A stretch of 64,000 nt of DNA from a phage, in NCBI GenBank assembly GCA_018865545.1, contig GCA_018865545.1_3633.1; one strand, 5' to 3'. The notes under the pieces were generated by a model, which was not told the origin of the DNA, did no database searches, and worked only from the letters and a program-made list of their open reading frames with translations. Shown piece after piece: positions 12,823-24,492 of this stretch. Positions within the stretch are counted from its first letter, which is position 1; each line of letters opens with the position of its first letter. The translations under genes and the position numbers were made by a program.

Positions 12823-13807
12823 TCCTTTATTCATGTCACGTCGTGAAGCTCGTGAATACGCTAAGAAAAATAATATGGTGGTTGTTGATCGTGGTCTAAA
12901 TGTTCTTAAACGCTGGACAGTTGCACCCAAGAAAGGAATGCCGACAACCAAAAAGGCTAAGGAAGATCCTGTAGGTATTATGAAGCCAGTGCATACTCTT
13001 GCACAACCAATTGTCCTTGTTACCCAAGACAATATCCATATCACTTTGTTAAATGGTGAACAATATACTCTAAATAGTAGCAGCCCCATCTTCAAAGAAG
13101 TTGGTGTTATCCTTTGGACAGGAGGAATAGATGCTGCTGTACAACGTATTTTGGAAGAGAAAGAAGCAGAAAAGAAAAAGACCATTGATTTTGGTGATAA
13201 TTTAGTATTGATAGATAGTGCTTTATATTGGCACGGTCAAAAACAGGAAAGCAGTATTGCTAAACGAATCATTAAAGATATTGAGAATGATTGCTTTGAC
13301 GAACGATATGTCAAATTCATGCAGAAGTTGCTACACAACCCGTCGTATGCTTCTGTTAAAATGCTTTATGATTTTGTAAAACATAATGATCTTGAGATCC
13401 TTGAAAACGGAAATATTAAGGCATACAAGAAAATTAAGATAACTGTAGATGGCCCACGAGATTGTCATACAGGTAAAGTTCCTAATTATAAAGGGCAAGT
13501 GATTTCCATGCCACGTAATATGGTTGAGGATAATCCCAATAGAACATGTAGCCAAGGTTTGCATGTTGCATCTATTGACTATGCCGCTACCTTTGAGAAG
13601 ACTTCAAGGGCACTTGTAGAAGTATCTGTGGATCCGGCAGATATTGTCAGTGTCCCTTATGACTATAACCAGAAAAAATGCCGTTGCTGTCGTTATGAAG
13701 TTCTGACAGGAACACCAAAACCAGCAGGTGCACCAGATATTATTGTCATTGGTGTACAGGGTAAAATTCTTGAAGAGATTTATCTACAAGAATCTAAGGA
13801 GGACTGA
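12815..13807 (+). CDS. hypothetical protein
   Basis: start at GTG 12815 after AAAGGAG (ATG 12833 is an alternative). Confidence 0.45.
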   Translation: MSNPLFMSRREAREYAKKNNMVVVDRGLNVLKRWTVAPKKGMPTTKKAKEDPVGIMKPVHTLAQPIVLVTQDNIHITLLNGEQYTLNSSSPIFKEVGVILWTGGIDAAVQRILEEKEAEKKKTIDFGDNLVLIDSALYWHGQKQESSIAKRIIKDIENDCFDERYVKFMQKLLHNPSYASVKMLYDFVKHNDLEILENGNIKAYKKIKITVDGPRDCHTGKVPNYKGQVISMPRNMVEDNPNRTCSQGLHVASIDYAATFEKTSRALVEVSVDPADIVSVPYDYNQKKCRCCRYEVLTGTPKPAGAPDIIVIGVQGKILEEIYLQESKED

Positions 13808-15111
13808 TGTCTCAATACGGGGTTGGCGTTGAAGAAGCTCTTGGCGCTATAATGTCCGGTGAAAATGTGTTTATCAGTGGTTATGCAGGTGCTGGAAAGA
13901 GCCATACCATAAAAACTATCCAATCCTTATACGCAGGTTCAGTCTTGACAGTGGCCCCTACAGGGGCTGCTGCCATTAATGTGGATGGTATGACGGCACA
14001 CAGAGCTTTCGGACTTTCATTAGGCGTGTCCACTAAAAAAGATGCAGAAGAGATAAAGGCAAAGGCTAAGAAGTTGCTTAAAAGTAAAGCACTGAAGATT
14101 CTTATTATTGAAGAGATAAGTATGTTCAGGGCAGACAAACTTTGGGAAATGGACATGAAATGTCGTCTGGCACGTAAAAAACCTAAAGAGCCTTTCGGTG
14201 GTTTGCAGGTGTGCATGTTCGGGGATTTCTTACAGAATCCACCTGTTTTGAAAGGTGAAGAAAAAGAGATCTACTACCAGTTCCACGACACAGAACTTTG
14301 TTGCTTTTCTAAAACATGGAAAGAATTGAACCCATATCCTGTATTTCTTGATAAAATATACAGGCAAAGTAGTGTTCATTTTTCAACACTTCTTAATTGC
14401 CTTCGCAAGGGAGAGCGTATTCCAGAGATTGTTGAGTTTATGAATACTTATTGCTACAACATGGGAAAACCCTTGGATGCTATAACAATAACCTCAACAA
14501 ACGCGGCAGCAGACAAAATAAACAAAAAACGTTTTGATGCAATACCTGGAATCCCAACAGTTTACAAGGCAAAAAAGACAGGGCAATTTAACCAGACACC
14601 TGTACCTGAAGAGTTATATCTGAAAGAGGGGGCGCAGGTGATGATTACTGTCAATGACCCCAGAGGTCTGGATGAACCAAGTTATGTGAATGGTTCCCGT
14701 GGGGAGATTGTTGAACTACGTAAATACAGTGTTAAAGTCCGCCTTGAGAATGGTGATATTGTTGACGTAGAACCTTATGTGTGGGAAAATGTTGAGTATA
14801 ACCCCATAAAGGTGAAAAACCCAGATGGTACAATAACTGAAGAAATTGAGAAGATTATCATTGGTGAGTACAGGGCTTTACCGATTCGTCTTGGGTGGGC
14901 TGTTACAATACACAAAGCACAAGGATTAACATTACCGGAAGTTAATGTTGACTTTGGCAATGGGACTTTTGCACCGGGCATGGCATACGTGGCTTTTAGC
15001 AGAGCAACAAGTGCAAAAGGATTAAGGTTATTACGTAGGATCAGGGATAAAGATATTATCGTTGATCAACGTCTTGTTAAGTTTTATGAAGAGACTTTCC
15101 CTGGTAAGTAG
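13807..15111 (+). CDS. Dda/Pif1-like SF1B DNA helicase
   Basis: Walker A GYAGAGKSHT, Walker B ILIIEEISM, C-terminal VTIHKAQGLT motif; 434 aa. Confidence 0.75.
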   Translation: MSQYGVGVEEALGAIMSGENVFISGYAGAGKSHTIKTIQSLYAGSVLTVAPTGAAAINVDGMTAHRAFGLSLGVSTKKDAEEIKAKAKKLLKSKALKILIIEEISMFRADKLWEMDMKCRLARKKPKEPFGGLQVCMFGDFLQNPPVLKGEEKEIYYQFHDTELCCFSKTWKELNPYPVFLDKIYRQSSVHFSTLLNCLRKGERIPEIVEFMNTYCYNMGKPLDAITITSTNAAADKINKKRFDAIPGIPTVYKAKKTGQFNQTPVPEELYLKEGAQVMITVNDPRGLDEPSYVNGSRGEIVELRKYSVKVRLENGDIVDVEPYVWENVEYNPIKVKNPDGTITEEIEKIIIGEYRALPIRLGWAVTIHKAQGLTLPEVNVDFGNGTFAPGMAYVAFSRATSAKGLRLLRRIRDKDIIVDQRLVKFYEETFPGK

Positions 15112-17141: not shown

Positions 17142-17363
17142 ATGGTTAAAAACACTGTTAAACTCATTGAGTTCAAAATTAGCAAAACAAAAAGAGAAGA
17201 AGTAGAGAGCAAACTGGCTGAACTTCTTGATGATGGCTATGACATTGCAGGACAGCATGAAGCTGAAGGTTGGCTGGTGTATACTTTAGTGAGAAAGCAT
17301 TCCCAAGTGCAAGACATTCCATACGGTGCAGATGGAACTCCTGTCCATACAGCGTTGCATTGA
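17142..17363 (+). CDS. hypothetical protein
   Basis: 73-aa ORF. Confidence 0.4.
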   Translation: MVKNTVKLIEFKISKTKREEVESKLAELLDDGYDIAGQHEAEGWLVYTLVRKHSQVQDIPYGADGTPVHTALH

Positions 17364-17376
17364 TTTCTAGTGTACT

Positions 17377-17406
17377 CAAAAGGCCCACATTACGGGCCTG
17401 TTTTCT
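17377..17406 (+). terminator. rho-independent terminator
   Basis: stem AGGCCC/GGGCCT, 7-nt loop, then GTTTTCT. Confidence 0.5.
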
Positions 17407-17409
17407 GGT

Positions 17410-18132
17410 ATGGGAGGTGTATTGAGTGATACGGTTTTGTGCATGTTTGACGGATCAGGCATCATGGGTTACGAATGGGCAAAAAACGGGTATAAAGTAA
17501 TATGCCTTAACTATGATGATGCTGACCACGGCGGTTATGAAAGTATCCGAGTAAAACATAAAAATATAGAATACATTAATGTTTGGATAGATGACCAGTT
17601 TAACCCAACAGAGATAGGGATCTGTAAGCCAAGTATTATATTCGCATTTCCACCATGTACTGACATGGCTGTTAGTGGTGCAGCGCATTTCGCAAGAAAA
17701 GCTGCAAAAGACCCTTTATTCCAGATAAAGGCTGTAAATACAGCAAAGGTGGCAGCAAGGTTGGCAGATGAATACGACTGCCCTTACATGATAGAAAATC
17801 CTGTTAGTGTTCTATCTTCTCTGTGGCGTAAACCAGATCATTCATTTCATCCTTATGAGTACGGCGGGTATCTATCAGAGAATGATGTTCATCCGTTTTT
17901 TCCAGAATACATAAAACCCAGAGATGCCTACCCTAAGAGGACTTGTTTGTGGACAGGCAATGGTTTTAAGATGCCGGAGAAATTACCTGTCCCCGTGTTA
18001 AGAGGGTATTCTGAGCAGCACCTAAAATTGGGTGGTAAATCAAAAAAGACAAAGGTTATAAGATCGTTAACCCCAAGAGGATTTGCCAAAGCTGTATTCC
18101 TATATAATGATTTTAGGAGGGCTGGTGGATAA
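17410..18132 (+). CDS. C5-cytosine methyltransferase-like protein (compact)
   Basis: motif I-like FDGSGIMG, motif IV-like FPPCTD..SGA (PC dipeptide), motif VI-like ENP; only 240 aa. Confidence 0.45.
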   Translation: MGGVLSDTVLCMFDGSGIMGYEWAKNGYKVICLNYDDADHGGYESIRVKHKNIEYINVWIDDQFNPTEIGICKPSIIFAFPPCTDMAVSGAAHFARKAAKDPLFQIKAVNTAKVAARLADEYDCPYMIENPVSVLSSLWRKPDHSFHPYEYGGYLSENDVHPFFPEYIKPRDAYPKRTCLWTGNGFKMPEKLPVPVLRGYSEQHLKLGGKSKKTKVIRSLTPRGFAKAVFLYNDFRRAGG

Positions 18133-18274
18133 AAATGTCAAGATTCTCACAGGAACTAGTATTTCAGAATTAGAATTAAAGCTAAACACTTGGTTTAGAA
18201 AAGGTTACTGTATTTCAGGTGGTATATCTGTGTGTAATGGCTGGTATATGGCTGTAGTTACCAAACCCTTCTAA
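18125..18274 (+). CDS. hypothetical small protein
   Basis: possible GTG start after AGGAGG. Confidence 0.25.
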   Translation: MDKNVKILTGTSISELELKLNTWFRKGYCISGGISVCNGWYMAVVTKPF

Positions 18275-18283
18275 GGAGAAGAG

Positions 18284-20284
18284 ATGAAGATGACAAAATG
18301 GGGGGCTGGTGCATACTTTGAAGGTGAGAACCCAAAAGCATTCCGACCTACAAAAAGTGGTGGTAAAGTGAATTATCAGAAAAAAGAAGAAGAAACTGTA
18401 GAGTCTGTCCTAGATAGTACAAGGATCTTGGCTGTCCCCCAAATGGATATTAGTTTAGATGCAGCTAAGTACTTCAAGATCAGATCTGCAACAGATTTGA
18501 AAGACGGTACTACAGTGGTGGCAACATATCTTCCATATTATGACAAATATGGGAAATTGACAGGGTACAAAAAACGAGACTGGACTGTTCCGAAAGAGAA
18601 AAAGGGGCATTTCTCTGTTGTTGGCACAGTAAAGGCTTCCTCTCAATTTTTTGGTCAACATGAGGCCTCTATGGGATCTGGTAAAAAACAGATCTTTATT
18701 GTTGAGGGGGAAGGTGATGTAACGGCTGGCTGGCAAGCTGGGTTTGAGTATATTAAATTCCTTCATAGCAATCCTAACACGTCACGTTCAGTACGTGAGT
18801 GGGCAAACAATGCTTTAAAAGGCATCAAAGCAATTCAGGATGGGGAAGAGGTTTCTAATTGCCCGACATTACCTTTTATCGGGTTGAACTGTGGTACAGC
18901 CAATGCTGTGGATACATTCGCCCACAACGAAAAGTTTATCAGGGAATATGAAAAGATTGTCCTTGGCTTAGACAATGATGAAGCCACAGCAAGGGAAAAA
19001 GAACACAGAATTAAGAAAGGTAAGGAAGCCACAGATGATGTCGCAGGTTTTTTACTGTCTGACAACATCTATGTTGCACGATACCCAAATGAGCGCAATG
19101 ACCCAAATGGTGTTAAAGATATCCGGGATATTTACAAAAAAGGTAAATGGATGGATATCTGGAATATGTTTGCTAAAGCGCAGGATAAATATGTTCCAGA
19201 CAAATTGATTGGGTTGGAGAGAATATCTATTGAAAATCTCCGTAAAAAGAAAAAAGATGGCGTTCCGTTGCCGTGCTTTCCTCGTTTGTATGAACTAACA
19301 AGAGGCCCACGAACAGGAGAATTGTGGACACTGACAGGCCCATCTGGAGCTGGGAAATCAACTTTCTCAAGAAAGATTGAGTATGCAATTATCGAGTACC
19401 TCCGTAACATGGATATTCCCCGATTAGACGGTTGGAAAGAGAACGAGAAAATTGCAATTATTCGTCTAGAGGAGGATGAGGAGGAGTCTGTAAACAGCTT
19501 ATATGCTGAGGAGCTAAAGATTGACCCGAAAGCATTTGTTGCAGACCCAGAACAATTCCTTACCGATGAGCAGCACTTAGCTATACACCAACGATGGATT
19601 GCCGAAGATAAGGTTAAAATTTTCGATCACTTTGGTTCAATACCAACTGACCAATTACTACAAAAATTGAAACAGATGGTTTTCCTTGATGGGTGTAGAT
19701 GGATTATCTTAGATCACTTATCGATGGTGATATCAGGATTAAAATCCGATAACGAGCGAAGAGATTTAGATAACATCATGACGGAATTGGCTGCCTTCTG
19801 CAAAAAATATGACGTGTTTATCCTCAGTATCAGCCATATGAAGCGTAAAGAGATCCAGATTCCAAAAGACAAAGATGGTAATCTCTTACCGTTTTGGTAT
19901 CCTGTGCGGAAAGAGGATCTCCGTGGGTCAGCAGCACTCGAACAGTTATCATGGGTTGTATTAGGTGTTGAACCTGAAGAACTCCCTGATCGCTCTCGTG
20001 GGCGTATTCGTAGCGTTGTAATGAAAAACCGTCCACATAAAAAATTAGGTATAGCGGATACTCTGATTATGGATGATAATGGTCAGTTTTCTGATGCGTC
20101 AGGATGGGTGTGGGAAGACAATATGTTTAAACTCAACGGGGAGGTAATGCTAAGACCTAAATCAATGGTTCAAAGTTTAGAGCTTGAAACACCTGTGGGT
20201 AAAATTGCTGTTTCTGTTCCTCAACAAGAACCTGCTGTTGTTATTGAGGAACCTGAAGATTTGGACAACGACACACCATTTTGA
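18284..20284 (+). CDS. DNA primase-helicase (TOPRIM plus DnaB-like)
   Basis: TOPRIM-like IFIVEGEGD; Walker A GPSGAGKST; 666 aa. Confidence 0.7.
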   Translation: MKMTKWGAGAYFEGENPKAFRPTKSGGKVNYQKKEEETVESVLDSTRILAVPQMDISLDAAKYFKIRSATDLKDGTTVVATYLPYYDKYGKLTGYKKRDWTVPKEKKGHFSVVGTVKASSQFFGQHEASMGSGKKQIFIVEGEGDVTAGWQAGFEYIKFLHSNPNTSRSVREWANNALKGIKAIQDGEEVSNCPTLPFIGLNCGTANAVDTFAHNEKFIREYEKIVLGLDNDEATAREKEHRIKKGKEATDDVAGFLLSDNIYVARYPNERNDPNGVKDIRDIYKKGKWMDIWNMFAKAQDKYVPDKLIGLERISIENLRKKKKDGVPLPCFPRLYELTRGPRTGELWTLTGPSGAGKSTFSRKIEYAIIEYLRNMDIPRLDGWKENEKIAIIRLEEDEEESVNSLYAEELKIDPKAFVADPEQFLTDEQHLAIHQRWIAEDKVKIFDHFGSIPTDQLLQKLKQMVFLDGCRWIILDHLSMVISGLKSDNERRDLDNIMTELAAFCKKYDVFILSISHMKRKEIQIPKDKDGNLLPFWYPVRKEDLRGSAALEQLSWVVLGVEPEELPDRSRGRIRSVVMKNRPHKKLGIADTLIMDDNGQFSDASGWVWEDNMFKLNGEVMLRPKSMVQSLELETPVGKIAVSVPQQEPAVVIEEPEDLDNDTPF

Positions 20285-20478
20285 GAGAAAAAGAGGATAC
20301 GTGTAAAATATGATGAGTTAGCTATTCGTGTTGCCAAGGGGCTTGAGGGGTACATTCCCGCCAAGAGAAGCCCTTTGGCAAAGAAACATAAATCAAAAAT
20401 AGGTAGTTTTCCACATAATCTATAACCAACTAAGAGATGGGCGACGATACAGTCAAGCCCATCTTGAATAGGAGGAGT

Positions 20479-22515
20479 ATGAAAGGGCTTTTTGTCGGAG
20501 ATAACGAAGCTGACGGATTATTAGAAGAGGCAACTAAATATCACTGCACACTTTTTAAAGAATATGCTGTAAATAACTGGGTGTTGTTTCTCGATCCTGC
20601 TCACAAGGAATACCAGAGTGCAGTTAATTTTGCACGCAGCAAAGAAGGTGTTAATTTACGTATCCTTTCTTATGATGATTTTTACTCTTGGTTGCAGACC
20701 GAGCCAAGAGGGATAGCAATACATAACCTGTTCGGCTATGATTTACGTCTGTGGAAAAAACTTTCTGGGATTGAATATGACATGTTCAAAGACCCAAAAT
20801 GTATGGGGACGATAGGTAATAAACAGGTAAATCTTTACGACACTCTTTCAATGAGTCGTGTTCTTTACCCAGATCGCCCATTGCCTAATGGCTGCCCAGA
20901 TTCTGTATTGAACCCTGTAACAGGAAAACGTGACAGGGTTGGGCCACACGGCTTATTGGCATGGGGTTATCGTGTAGCAAACAAGAAAGTGCAGATTGAT
21001 GATTGGCGTAATCAGCCATTGTGGGAATATGTAAACCGTGTGTGGGAAGACGTTATCATTAACGAACTTGTGTGGAAAGCTCTTATTGATGAGTCAAATG
21101 GTACGCGATGGCCTGATGACAAGCAGTTTATGTACACTGATAAACCTCACGGGATGCACCAGATTAATTGGAAAAATGCATTACGTAGGAGAATGCTCAC
21201 AGACTATTTGATGATAGAGCAAGAAATACAAGGCGTATACTTTAATCGGGAGGAGGCAGAAAAATTAAGAGATCGCATAGATAAGATGATGCGAGAAATT
21301 GAAGAAGAGGTAGAACCACTTCTTCCAAAAAAAGAGATGACGAAATCTCAACAACCAAAATTCCCAGCTAACCCTTTTGACACAGCGGGTAATATATCTC
21401 ATCATGGGTGGAATTGGTTGGAATATAAACTTGGCTATCCTGTTAACAGGGAAGCTCTGGAGTTTAAAGCTCCACCAAAAACAGCTTTTAAGAGTAATGG
21501 GGATGTAAGTGCAGCAGGGGAGAGATATTGCATCCAGAATGGCATTGAAGATCCGGCTTTATACGGTGATTTCATTCGTTCCCAGCGAACCAAAGAGAAC
21601 ACACTCGAACCTTTACCGCCAGATCTTCTAGAGAAGGCTAAAGAAGACCTTCGAAACAGAAAAATGCCAGATTTAATGGTTCCAATGAAAATCTCTAATC
21701 AAGATGATATTAAAAAATATTTGATCAAAGATGCTGGTTGGAAACCTACACTGTGGCGTGTAAAAGATGTTACTAAGGATCAATTTAAAAAGACTCGTGA
21801 AGATTCTGAAATTGATGTACTAGTTAAGAAGTACATAGAAGAGTTGGCAGAGTCTGAGTATAAATCTCTTATTCTTGACTACCTTAATGATTCAGATGAG
21901 AAATTCAACATTTCAGAGCGTAAGTTTGACCATCGCCATGCATCTGAAAGGGGTTATTCAGAGATATTTAAGAAATTTCGGCGTAAAGCACGCCAGTTAC
22001 CGACATCTCCTCAATTAAAAGATAATTTTGGGCATCTGTGTCCAAATTTGGAGAAAATTGATGTGCATATGGCAAAACAGATTGTTAAGTGGCTATCACT
22101 TCGTAACAGGCGATCTGTTTTAGACCCAATGGATGAGGATAAGACGGATACAGGGTTATTAAATCACCCTCGTTTAGACATTGACGGAAAACTTCCAGCA
22201 CGTTTTTCTGGAATCACTAACACGGGCAGGTGCAAGCATACTGTTTGCGCAAACATGCCCAAGCCTGATCCGAAGGTTTTGTTGGGAAAAGAAATGCGGG
22301 GTCTTTGGACAGTCCCTGAAGGCTACTACCTGATGGGTTGTGATGGATCTAACTTAGAAGGTATGATTGCAGCGGCAGGGGCTTTTGAGTTTGATGGTGG
22401 TGAGTATTTACGTATCATGATGGAAGAGGATGCCCATGAACGAAACGCAAGAGCATACACAATAGCAGCAGGAAAGGAGGTAACACGCTCTGGAGGAAAG
22501 GGGGTTACGTATGGT
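20479..22515 (+). CDS. family-A DNA polymerase, exon 1 (3'-5' exonuclease to start of motif B)
   Basis: start ATG 20479 after AGGAGG; Exo I-like FVGDNEADGL; motif A-like CDGSNLEGM; ends ...RSGGKGVTYG, the first half of motif B. Confidence 0.75.
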
Positions 22516-23249
22516 TAATGATAGCCCCCTTACAAAGTAATTTGTAAGGTGCACCCATTGAATTGCTGGGAAGTCTGACCGAGTTATGTCGAAGATAATC
22601 AGCAGGTAAGCGAATGCTTCCCTCTTACAAAAGGAGGGAGAATATGAGTACATTTTGTTGTATAATCTGCGGTGAACAATGTGTTAAAACTGGTAAAAAT
22701 CAAAAAGTATGTCTCTCTGAAGGTTGTAGAAGAGAATATTCAAAGATAAAAACCAGAGAATATAGACGCAGAAAGGCCGAAAGAGAAAATAGGCTTGACA
22801 GAGTTGGCATAGGAAAAGGTGGTGGGCAGCCTCGTGGGAAATTGTCCAAATTTTATAAAAATGGCATATCGATGTTTCGTAAGTTATCCCCTGTCATAAA
22901 GGAACAGAGAAGATACTGTAATAGATGTAATAAAGATCTTCTTTATGCAGGTAAGGATGAGTGGTGCGTTCATCATATTGACCATGATAGGACGAATAAC
23001 GAAATAAGTAATTTTGAATTACTTTGTAAAAAATGCCATCAAATAGAACATAAATGTTGGGAAGCATTCGAAACTTCAACGACTAGCCGAAAGGCGTAGG
23101 GCCAAGCGGTGAGGGAAACCTCCAGTCTTTCAGACTGCCGAAGCAGTGGGCATCCTGAAAAGGATGAAGATATAGTCTGATCTGCATAGAAATATGTAGC
23201 AGTTCCTAAGAGGACGGGCATGGTGTAGCGAGCCATGTTGAACAATATG
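22516..23249 (+). mobile_element. group I self-splicing intron (IA-like) in the DNA polymerase gene
   Basis: exon 1 ends in U, intron ends in G; P-like AATTGCTGGGAAG (22561-22573), Q-like AATCAGCAGG (22597-22606), R-like TTCAACGACTAG (23075-23086), S-like GAAGATATAGTCTG (23166-23179); several GNRA-capped hairpins; HNH ORF between Q and R. Confidence 0.75.
22644..23099 (+). CDS. intron-encoded HNH homing endonuclease
   Basis: N-terminal Cys-rich zinc-finger-like region; C-terminal CVHHIDHDRTNN...CKKCH HNH motif; start ATG 22644 after AAGGAGGGAG. Confidence 0.7.
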   Translation: MSTFCCIICGEQCVKTGKNQKVCLSEGCRREYSKIKTREYRRRKAERENRLDRVGIGKGGGQPRGKLSKFYKNGISMFRKLSPVIKEQRRYCNRCNKDLLYAGKDEWCVHHIDHDRTNNEISNFELLCKKCHQIEHKCWEAFETSTTSRKA

Positions 23250-23882
23250 ATCATGTATGGAGCACAAGCTCCTAAGATAGCCGCAATGCTGGGTATCCCC
23301 CTTAATAGAGCACAGGCTGTAATAGACGCATTCTGGGATAGTAACTTCGGGTTGAAAATGCGTAGAGAGTGGTTAGAAAAATTCTGGGAGGCAAATGGGA
23401 GACGCTATATTCCAGGCATGGACGGGCGTAAAATTTGGACTCGTTCTAAACATTCTCTGCTGAATGCTTACCAACAAAACGGTGGTGCTTCATTGTTTGA
23501 CCTCATGGGAGTCCTGTTCCATTGGGAATTGGTGAAACGGGGATGGTACGACCAAGGTGTCAGGAGGGTTATCTACTACCACGATGAGATACAGGTACAA
23601 GTACCGGAAAGATTTAAATCAATAACGGAGCATTCTAACTTAGAGGCTGCACAAAGCTATGTAGACATGATGCTTGAAAAAGGCCATCGTTTCGACGGGC
23701 ATTATGTGAAAGCAGGTAAAGTTATTGTTGAACCTGATGTGTATGGGAAATACAGGATACTGCATTGCCCAGTAGGAGAGCTTGCAACAAAATGTGTAGA
23801 AAAAGCATCTAAGATAATGGGACTTCCCGTTTTAATTACAGGAGAATATCTTTGTGGATACACATGGGCAGATTCCCACTGA
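23250..23882 (+). CDS. family-A DNA polymerase, exon 2 (rest of motif B, motif C)
   Basis: begins IMYGAQAPKIA, completing motif B (K..YG..YGA...KI) when joined to exon 1; YYHDEIQV matches motif C. Confidence 0.75.
   Translation: MMYGAQAPKIAAMLGIPLNRAQAVIDAFWDSNFGLKMRREWLEKFWEANGRRYIPGMDGRKIWTRSKHSLLNAYQQNGGASLFDLMGVLFHWELVKRGWYDQGVRRVIYYHDEIQVQVPERFKSITEHSNLEAAQSYVDMMLEKGHRFDGHYVKAGKVIVEPDVYGKYRILHCPVGELATKCVEKASKIMGLPVLITGEYLCGYTWADSH
23854..23870 (+). repeat. direct repeat, copy 1 (flanks freestanding HNH gene)
   Basis: GTGGATACACATGGGCA; 14 of 17 nt identical to copy 2 at 24410-24426. Confidence 0.4.
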
Positions 23883-24492
23883 TGAAGTAGAGGAAATTTG
23901 GAAGGATATCGTAGGGTATCCTGATTATCAAGTAAGTAATTATGGAAATGTAAGATCTTTTAAATCAGGAATGTGGAAATACTTAAAAACTAAAAGTGAA
24001 AATTTATCTCCACAATGCTATCCGAGCGTGTGCTTGTACAAAAGGGGTAAAGATTCAGGGAAAAGTTTTTCAGTCCATAGACTTGTAGCGGAGGCTTTTA
24101 AAGAGCCTCCTTCTCCAGAATTGCAGAAAGAATGTAGAAAAACTGTGCTAGGAGTTCCAATTATAAACCACATAGATGGTGACAGACATAATAATAGGGT
24201 TGAAAATCTTGAGTGGTGTACCTATAGCCATAACAATACAGTGGCTTATGGTATGGGGAGAATCCAAAAATTTGGTGATGATTATCATTTATCTGTTCTT
24301 ACAAAGGAGAAAGTTTTAGAGATTGTACGGCTTATTGATTGTGGGATAACACACAAAGCTATTGCGGAACTATTCGGAGTTTCCAGAAATACAATATCTT
24401 CTTTAAATAATGGATACTCATGGTCACATGTCACAGGAAGACCTAAGAAAGTCCAGAAAAGAAGATCAAAAACAGACCCTATATCAGAGTAA
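23854..24492 (+). CDS. freestanding HNH homing endonuclease (NUMOD4-like N-terminus, HNH, C-terminal HTH)
   Basis: EEIWKDIVGYPDYQVSNYGNVRS; HIDGDRHNNRVENLEW; HTH-like ITHKAIAELFGVSRNTIS; GTG start overlaps the polymerase 3' end. Confidence 0.65.
   Translation: MDTHGQIPTDEVEEIWKDIVGYPDYQVSNYGNVRSFKSGMWKYLKTKSENLSPQCYPSVCLYKRGKDSGKSFSVHRLVAEAFKEPPSPELQKECRKTVLGVPIINHIDGDRHNNRVENLEWCTYSHNNTVAYGMGRIQKFGDDYHLSVLTKEKVLEIVRLIDCGITHKAIAELFGVSRNTISSLNNGYSWSHVTGRPKKVQKRRSKTDPISE
24410..24426 (+). repeat. direct repeat, copy 2
   Basis: ATGGATACTCATGGTCA. Confidence 0.4.

Follow-up and report, generated by a model that had tools for sequence, protein, structure and literature searches.

The one experimentally studied member of the compact phage Dcm-like family of DNA cytosine-C5 methyltransferases is the Dcm of strain K42, which is 95% identical to phage KarlJaspers and was used by Wang et al. 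(bioRxiv 10.1101/2023.08.16.553469; the preprint was later cited as Cell Rep 2024;43:114857). Mutants that escape the retron Ec86 (also called Eco1) disrupt the 711-bp dcm gene of K42, expression of K42 Dcm is toxic only when Ec86 is present, and such a Dcm is encoded by 34 of the 35 Ec86-sensitive phages, which fall into three families (bioRxiv 10.1101/2023.08.16.553469). Liquid chromatography coupled to mass spectrometry (LC-MS) showed that K42 Dcm, which triggers the retron, raises the level of 5-methylcytosine (5mC) on the multicopy single-stranded DNA (msDNA) of Ec86, and that the quadruple mutant C82A/E128A/K175A/K176A, the control in the assays, gives only low 5mC; K175/K176 were named as substrate-binding residues (bioRxiv 10.1101/2023.08.16.553469). 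A further relative is gp52 of Pantoea phage AAS23, in which BLASTP found no conserved domain and for which the HHpred match was a Shigella C5-methylase; the DNA of AAS23 behaves as Dcm-methylated in restriction digests, including digestion with EcoRII (PMC8004638). Here, a gene at positions 17410 to 18132 of a 64,000-nucleotide stretch of phage DNA (GenBank assembly GCA_018865545.1, contig GCA_018865545.1_3633.1; the whole stretch is called the window below) was compared with these systems. Homology, fold, motif conservation and genomic context, which form the basis of this analysis, suggest that its product is very probably an active orphan phage DNA cytosine-C5 methyltransferase that depends on S-adenosylmethionine (SAM) and belongs to the compact Dcm-like family (PHROG 757).

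Comparison of the window protein with KarlJaspers (Bas06, MZ501090) gp55, encoded by a 711-bp gene annotated as 'Dcm-like C5 cytosine methyltransferase', showed 54% identity over the full length (E 3e-89; 236 vs 240 amino acids, aa), and identity to AAS23 gp52 was 52%. Residues C82, E128, K175 and K176 of K42 Dcm align with C83, E129, K176 and R177 of the window protein, and of these C83, E129 and K176 do not vary among 60 diverse relatives. The initial annotation, made from the sequence alone, had offered a minimal methylase, a base-modifying enzyme or a decoy as possible identities. Because the 54%-identical homologue makes 5mC in vivo, the minimal methylase is the option that gains support.

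The motifs on which that annotation had been built, FDGSG, FPPCTD and ENP in the order of C5-methyltransferase motifs I, IV and VI, were all present in the open reading frame (ORF). The coding sequence and its conserved elements up to the motif VIII-like strand are as follows.

17410–18132, plus strand: coding sequence of the compact Dcm-like enzyme (DNA C5-cytosine methyltransferase); translation from ATG 17410 gives 240 aa, and from TTG 17422, a possible start, 236 aa.
17446–17460, plus strand: motif I, FDGSG (residues 13–17), the putative SAM-binding loop after strand beta1 (residues 8–12).
17647–17679, plus strand: motif IV, FPPCTD (residues 80–85, nucleotides 17647–17664), with the putative catalytic Cys83 and a flexible catalytic loop extending to G90.
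17794–17802, plus strand: motif VI, ENP (residues 129–131) at the end of strand 126–131; Glu129 is equivalent to the ENV glutamate, and the motif aligns with ENV of Dcm.
17803–17934, plus strand: conserved insert specific to the family, from motif VI to the motif VIII-like strand (residues 132–175, WRKPD...HPYEYGGYL...PRDAYP).
17935–17964, plus strand: motif VIII-like strand KRTCLWTGNG (residues 176–185), in which K176, T178 and W181 are invariant; residues 178–183 form a strand in the model.

In alignments, FDGSG falls on FAGIGG in E. coli Dcm and on motif I in DNMT2. The basic residues of motif VIII (QxRxR type) may have their counterpart in KRTCLW (residues 176–181) on the modelled strand 178–183, which was matched to K175/K176 of K42 Dcm by sequence alignment. 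Residues F13, G15, S16, G17, P81, P82, C83, T84, E129, N130 and P131 were invariant in 49 close relatives. In the 60 diverse relatives, whose mean column identity is 31%, P82, C83, T84, E129, N130 and P131 were invariant, as were P148, Y174, K176, T178, W181, P189, R218 and G224. Invariance in both sets indicates that the motifs go beyond chance, and the alternative of chance motifs or a non-coding region was ruled out by conservation across thousands of homologues. The insert at residues 132–175, where W139, R140, P148, D172 and Y174 are invariant or nearly so, ranges from 23 to 54 aa across the family (median 41), was modelled with a predicted local distance difference test (pLDDT) score of 95–98, and is a candidate DNA-contact surface.

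An AlphaFold2 model based on the 49-sequence alignment reached a pLDDT of 89.4 and a predicted template modelling score (pTM) of 0.88. C5-methyltransferases carry a mobile catalytic loop directly after the catalytic cysteine, and the only stretch of the model with pLDDT below 50 was residues 85–90, right after Cys83. A non-methyltransferase fold, or the lack of a loop with the catalytic cysteine on alignment, had been named as grounds for giving up the initial assignment. Neither was encountered: the predicted fold is that of the C5-methyltransferase catalytic domain, and FPPC (residues 80–83) comes after strand 76–79, with its PC, including Cys83, aligned to the PC of Dcm and DNMT2.

As a separate observation, BFVD matches placed the compact methyltransferase fold in segments of two huge uncultured-Caudovirales proteins, A0A6J5SE15_1 (1397 aa) and A0A6J5NPY6_2 (1126 aa), at 24–26% identity and E 1e-9 to 1e-11; one of the two is labelled 'Helicase/UvrB, N-terminal'. 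This suggests that giant multidomain phage proteins also use the compact module as one of their domains.

The protein matched PHROG 757, 'DNA methyltransferase', over residues 7–234 (E 6.4e-87). A tblastn search found homologues in 1509 phage records, with Escherichia, Klebsiella, Salmonella, Shigella, Campylobacter, Vibrio, Arthrobacter and others as hosts and annotations running from 'hypothetical protein' to 'Dcm methylase'. A large protein collection held 4689 relatives, the best 120 of which were 219–259 aa long, and an exhaustive profile search returned 1952 clusters at 50% identity (E up to 1e-3), or 885 at E up to 1e-10. Nearly all complete members of these clusters had 200–260 aa, implying that compactness is a conserved property of the family and not the result of truncation. 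The window protein, with 240 aa, falls within the size expected of a compact member (about 200–260 aa, ending soon after the IRSxTPRGFA block).

By analogy with established C5-methyltransferase chemistry, SAM would be bound at the FDGSG loop and the target cytosine flipped out. Cys83 of FPPC would then attack C6 while Glu129 of ENP protonates N3 and the KRTCLW strand holds the base through its basic residues, after which the methyl group would move to C5 and the cysteine be eliminated. In place of a full target-recognition domain, the enzyme would use a short segment, hypervariable and about 26 residues long, followed by a single C-terminal helix-turn-helix. The position of the gene in a replication module suggests that the enzyme is made during phage replication and methylates DNA post-replicatively, so that progeny DNA would resist host restriction. 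The target is possibly CCWGG, in which case protection against EcoRII-type enzymes would result, and a predicted side effect is that retron Eco1 could be set off in hosts carrying it.

The description of the protein as too short for a canonical enzyme was borne out: its 240 aa compare with 327 for M.HhaI, 328 for M.HaeIII, about 270–290 for DNMT3 catalytic domains and 472 for E. coli Dcm. So was the remark that an obvious target-recognition domain is lacking, as W181 and G208 are separated by only 26 residues (23–60 across the family). Two elements make up the C-terminal part.

17965–18033, plus strand: short hypervariable segment of the GYSxQH subtype (residues 186–208), a candidate mini target-recognition element.
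18028–18108, plus strand: the sole conserved block after the variable segment, LGGKS..TKVIRSLTPRGFAKAVFLYN (also written LGGKS..TKVIRSLTPRGFAKAVF), a C-terminal helix-turn-helix (residues 207–233).

Within the family, conservation is lowest and length varies most in the stretch from W181 to G208, where the subtypes GYSxQH, NPGW, FGxSRQH and NxSPV occur; as a minimal recognition element, this short variable segment is the obvious candidate. In the C-terminal block, R218 and G224 are invariant and S219, P222 and A228 nearly so; helices were modelled at 212–219 and 223–233, and family proteins stop a median of 21 residues past R218. Local alignment of this block with hhalign gave a higher score for Dcm motif IX RRLTPRECARLMGF (11.8–12.0, E 0.01–0.08) than for motif X (7.5), neither being significant, and the modelled helix-turn-helix shape would also suit the role of motif X. 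Whichever way the choice between IX and X falls, the protein lacks the canonical target-recognition domain as well as one C-terminal motif of the usual two. For a DNA methyltransferase that presumably recognises a specific sequence, this make-up of motifs I–VIII, a loop of about 25 residues and one C-terminal block is unusually small.

Several results weigh against an active C5-methyltransferase with a Dcm-like target. Scans of the protein against Pfam (E up to 10) and NCBIfam gave no match, the gathering threshold of PF00145 not being reached, and PF00145 was matched by only 7 of the 60 diverse relatives (best E 0.0067). Neither phmmer nor the close-family profile found a match among PDB sequences; the broad-family profile reached DNMT2 only, at E 0.68, with motifs I–IV correctly aligned and two unrelated matches at similar E. 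The variable target-recognition domain of about 80 residues or more that separates motif VIII from motif IX was not found in the protein, nor were motif IX (RxLTxRExARLQGFP) and motif X (GNxV plus helix) found together: there is a single block at 207–233, and a GN-type motif X is not recognisable. The experimental record of 5mC formation and retron triggering belongs to the 54%-identical homologue. As to the target, CCWGG was assumed for K42 Dcm by analogy with the host Dcm, the support being that mutation of CCTGG in the msDNA stem abolishes defence (bioRxiv 10.1101/2023.08.16.553469). In the window itself, CCWGG was the most depleted short palindrome, with 43 sites observed vs 101.7 expected from a maximal-order Markov model (observed/expected ratio, O/E, 0.42; z −5.8), which is not what full self-protection at CCWGG would predict.

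The link to canonical enzymes was also sought by profile–profile comparison. An hhalign comparison of the family profile with E. coli Dcm placed FDGSG/FAGIGG, FPPC/FPCQ and ENP/ENV in register without reaching significance (E 0.23), and comparison with a profile of Dcm homologues gave only a meaningless 11-column match, that profile being narrow, with all of its 120 listed homologues at least 74% identical. The sequence link of the family to PF00145 is only marginal. Of the profile and structure comparison that had been proposed as a check, the fold and motifs I, IV and VI came out as expected, and a significant profile match with canonical enzymes did not.

The missing target-recognition domain and GN-type motif X, together with DNMT2 as the sole PDB profile match from the superfamily, would fit a relative that is catalytically dead or not directed at DNA, which might bind SAM as a decoy, act as an anti-defence binder or, like Dnmt2, make m5C in RNA (tRNA). 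We consider this highly unlikely. Across about 2000 clusters there is no variation in the catalytic cysteine, the ENP glutamate or the basic strand, arguing that catalysis has been kept, and the 54%-identical homologue methylates msDNA in vivo whereas its catalytic mutant does not. The decoy put forward in the initial annotation was rejected on the invariance of the catalytic residues.

The third of the original options, a base-modifying enzyme, can be framed as transfer of a group other than methyl, for example carboxymethyl from carboxy-S-adenosylmethionine (Cx-SAM, made by E. coli CmoA) as in the base-hypermodifying CmoX. CmoX enzymes are defined by an xPPC motif and an Arg that replaces Asn304 of M.HhaI motif X, and E. 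coli supplies Cx-SAM; the CmoX of known structure (PDB 8yf3) has 333 aa and an SPPC motif, its R350 lies in a true motif X, and its gene is beside cmoA and cmoY (PMC12783734). The window protein has FPPC, and Arg218 is invariant in the only C-terminal block of the family, both of which recall this arrangement; the reading is nevertheless hardly credible. K42 Dcm, a homologue, yields 5mC by LC-MS, the CmoX signature is SPPC and not FPPC, and the block with R218 aligns better with motif IX than with motif X (neither significantly). DNMT3A/B are methyltransferases even though an Arg occupies their motif X position. In addition, no cmoA-, cmoY- or ligase-like gene was found among the 14 neighbouring ORFs scanned, and the protein was not assigned to CmoX.

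For the methyltransferase favoured here, the target site was considered separately. By analogy with its homologues, the window enzyme may recognise CCWGG, a proposition that we hold to be a little short of evenly balanced. Possible, if somewhat doubtful, is that the enzyme is an active DNA C5-methyltransferase with a target other than CCWGG. Its hypervariable segment, which is specific to the subfamily, could in that case set another site or a shorter and relaxed one, and the CCWGG label taken from Drexlerviridae enzymes would be wrong for the Vequintavirinae enzyme. Consistent with this, the segment from the motif VIII-like strand to LGGKS is the only part of the family that is hypervariable and varies in length, and it occurs in subtypes, and literature searches found no directly mapped methylome, and no direct specificity mapping, for any family member. 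Genome statistics point the same way. KarlJaspers, which encodes Dcm-like and Dam-like enzymes, has O/E 1.03 for CCWGG and 1.0 for GATC. The pooled CCWGG O/E was 1.06 (median 1.13) for genomes of subtype NPGW (KarlJaspers, AAS23 and their relatives) and 0.75 (median 0.73) for those of subtype GYSxQH (Mann–Whitney p 2e-4), so that the site is avoided in GYSxQH genomes, as in the window, and not in NPGW genomes. This comparison covered 34 related loci, many of them near-duplicates, with subtype confounded with phylogeny, and is not an independent test.

Other results argue against a target other than CCWGG. Dhillonvirus-like loci, which are also GYSxQH, had CCWGG O/E of 0.84–1.01. The depletion in the window could stem from decay by 5mC deamination (CTTGG+CCAAG are mildly enriched, O/E 1.17), or could reflect selection before the methyltransferase is expressed. 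Moreover, Ec86-sensitive phages of several families encode such a Dcm, and activation of Ec86 needs the CCTGG of the msDNA. The palindrome statistics across the 34 loci did not bring out an alternative candidate site. Taken together, the CCWGG statistics fit CCWGG protection in the Drexlerviridae enzymes, and the depletion in the window, which would be compatible with another target or with loss through 5mC deamination, is treated as an unexplained observation and not as a result. Also depleted in the window were GGWCC, CTAG, GGCC and CCGG, and GCWGC and GCSGC were mildly enriched. Strong restriction-site avoidance was seen besides: GAATTC, AAGCTT, CTGCAG and CAGCTG are absent from the 64 kb, with 8–20 occurrences expected for each.

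A broader proposal would be that the family is a minimal C5-methyltransferase scaffold that has shed the target-recognition domain and one C-terminal motif and reads DNA through a swappable loop of about 25 residues and the conserved insert between motifs VI and VIII, with a target other than CCWGG for GYSxQH members. Such a target would explain why the window genome still purges CCWGG; we regard the proposal as rather unlikely.

Two features bear on the start of the gene.

17413–17424, plus strand: possible ribosome-binding site GGAGG (17413–17417) and in-frame TTG (17422–17424), read from the sequence.
17381–17409, plus strand: terminator-like hairpin AGGCCCACATTACGGGCCT with T-rich tail GTTTTCTGGT, directly 5′ of the methyltransferase start, from a consensus scan.

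The true start may be TTG 17422 after GGAGG, giving a protein of 236 aa. FDGSG would then lie 8 residues from the N-terminus, in line with most homologues, where the distance is 6–8 residues. The hairpin is qualified by the number of terminator-like sites across the region, which equals the expectation from shuffled sequence. The 246-aa version of the protein annotated in phage Av-05 would need a start inside this hairpin.

The region is 94–95% identical to Escherichia phages 18-1-2, 19-1-2, TH18, 24-2-1 and Av-05. Av-05 belongs to the Vequintavirinae (Avunavirus), and its RefSeq orthologue is annotated as 'DNA methyltransferase'; the orthologue is a 'hypothetical protein' in five of the six closest records. 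The gene lies in a replication module, with a Pif1/Dda-type helicase (13807–15111) and several small ORFs upstream and a primase-helicase (18284–20284) and DNA polymerase (from 20437) downstream. No nuclease partner was detected among the neighbouring ORFs, implying that the methyltransferase is an orphan. A restriction-modification pair was rejected, the neighbours being helicase, primase-helicase, polymerase and small ORFs, without a nuclease.

The methyltransferase gene is flanked by two small ORFs, 17142–17363 (73 aa) and 18125–18274 (49 aa), which resemble each other weakly (33% over 33 aa) and have E(L/V)ExKL...GYxIxG...GW in common. ORF 17142–17363 matches PHROG 10384 and ORF 16077–16403 matches PHROG 10936, both labelled 'DNA ligase'. 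As these proteins have only 73–108 aa, the label is implausible and is probably a propagated misannotation, present also in RefSeq Av-05. The DNA polymerase gene is split within 20437–24492 into an N-terminal part at 20437–22518 (PHROG 17 positions 667–1071) and a C-terminal part at 23235–23882 (positions 1072–1233), with one HNH endonuclease ORF between the parts (22614–23099) and another after the C-terminal part (23854–24492). Av-05 has one further HNH insertion, its polymerase being annotated in three pieces. The split looks like an interruption of the homing-endonuclease or intron type. In Av-05 a second, tiny 'methyltransferase', Av05_00154 (384 bp), is annotated near macro-domain and RNA ligase family proteins, upstream of rIIA/rIIB; its counterpart in the window would fall about 8.7 kb upstream of the compact methyltransferase.

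The window gene is in itself ordinary, being an orthologue of annotated 'DNA methyltransferase' genes in Av-05-like phages, and the family is often left as 'hypothetical protein' because it is invisible to Pfam and NCBIfam. Methyltransferases of this kind decide the sensitivity of phages to restriction enzymes and to retron Eco1 and are relevant to the choice of therapeutic phages and of production hosts. The minimal architecture and the specificity are the only parts that deserve follow-up, and mapping of the specificity could correct many annotations. If the broader proposal of a minimal scaffold were true, more than 1500 phage genes annotated as 'Dcm-like / CCWGG' would in part carry the wrong label, and the scaffold would be the smallest known programmable cytosine methyltransferase. 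An earlier report may also be affected: the DNA of Klebsiella phage KP36 was reported to be resistant to EcoRII, and the authors, who found no cytosine methyltransferase gene, credited the host Dcm (PMC3620542). Many Klebsiella phage genomes of about 49–52 kb, a size similar to that of KP36, carry a compact-family homologue of 47–50% identity (KP36 itself lay outside the comparison). The attribution of EcoRII resistance in KP36 to the host Dcm may, on this ground, need revisiting.

Among known methyltransferases, E. coli Dcm/M.EcoRII is the namesake and presumed functional analogue, acting on the inner C of CCWGG. Its motifs I, IV and VI are in register with those of the window protein, and the C-terminal block of the latter resembles motif IX of Dcm (not significantly). 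E. coli Dcm differs in having 472 aa with an N-terminal domain, a large target-recognition domain and matches to PF00145 and PF18284; the window protein matches neither Pfam entry, the profile–profile comparison was not significant, and it was not placed in the Dcm/M.EcoRII family. No vsr-like partner was found at the window locus. M.HhaI and M.HaeIII, with 327–328 aa, carry between motifs VIII and IX a target-recognition domain of about 80–100 residues, and their motif X is of the form GN(S/A)V; in the window protein neither element is recognisable. DNMT3 enzymes have an unusually small target-recognition region and a motif VIII-like ...WGN/WTGNG strand, keep motifs IX and X, and act as DNMT3L-assisted oligomers on CpG. 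The catalytic domains of DNMT3A and DNMT3B, also C5-methyltransferases, share 13–18% identity with the window protein, which is about 50 aa shorter and ends after one C-terminal block. Closest is the KarlJaspers/K42 Dcm, which shares with the window protein the family, the architecture, the catalytic residues and a gene position near replication genes. The two differ in lineage, KarlJaspers being a siphovirus of the Drexlerviridae and the window an Avunavirus-like myovirus of the Vequintavirinae, in the hypervariable segment, which is NPGW in the former and GYSxQH in the latter, and in the use of CCWGG, which KarlJaspers does not avoid whereas the window does.

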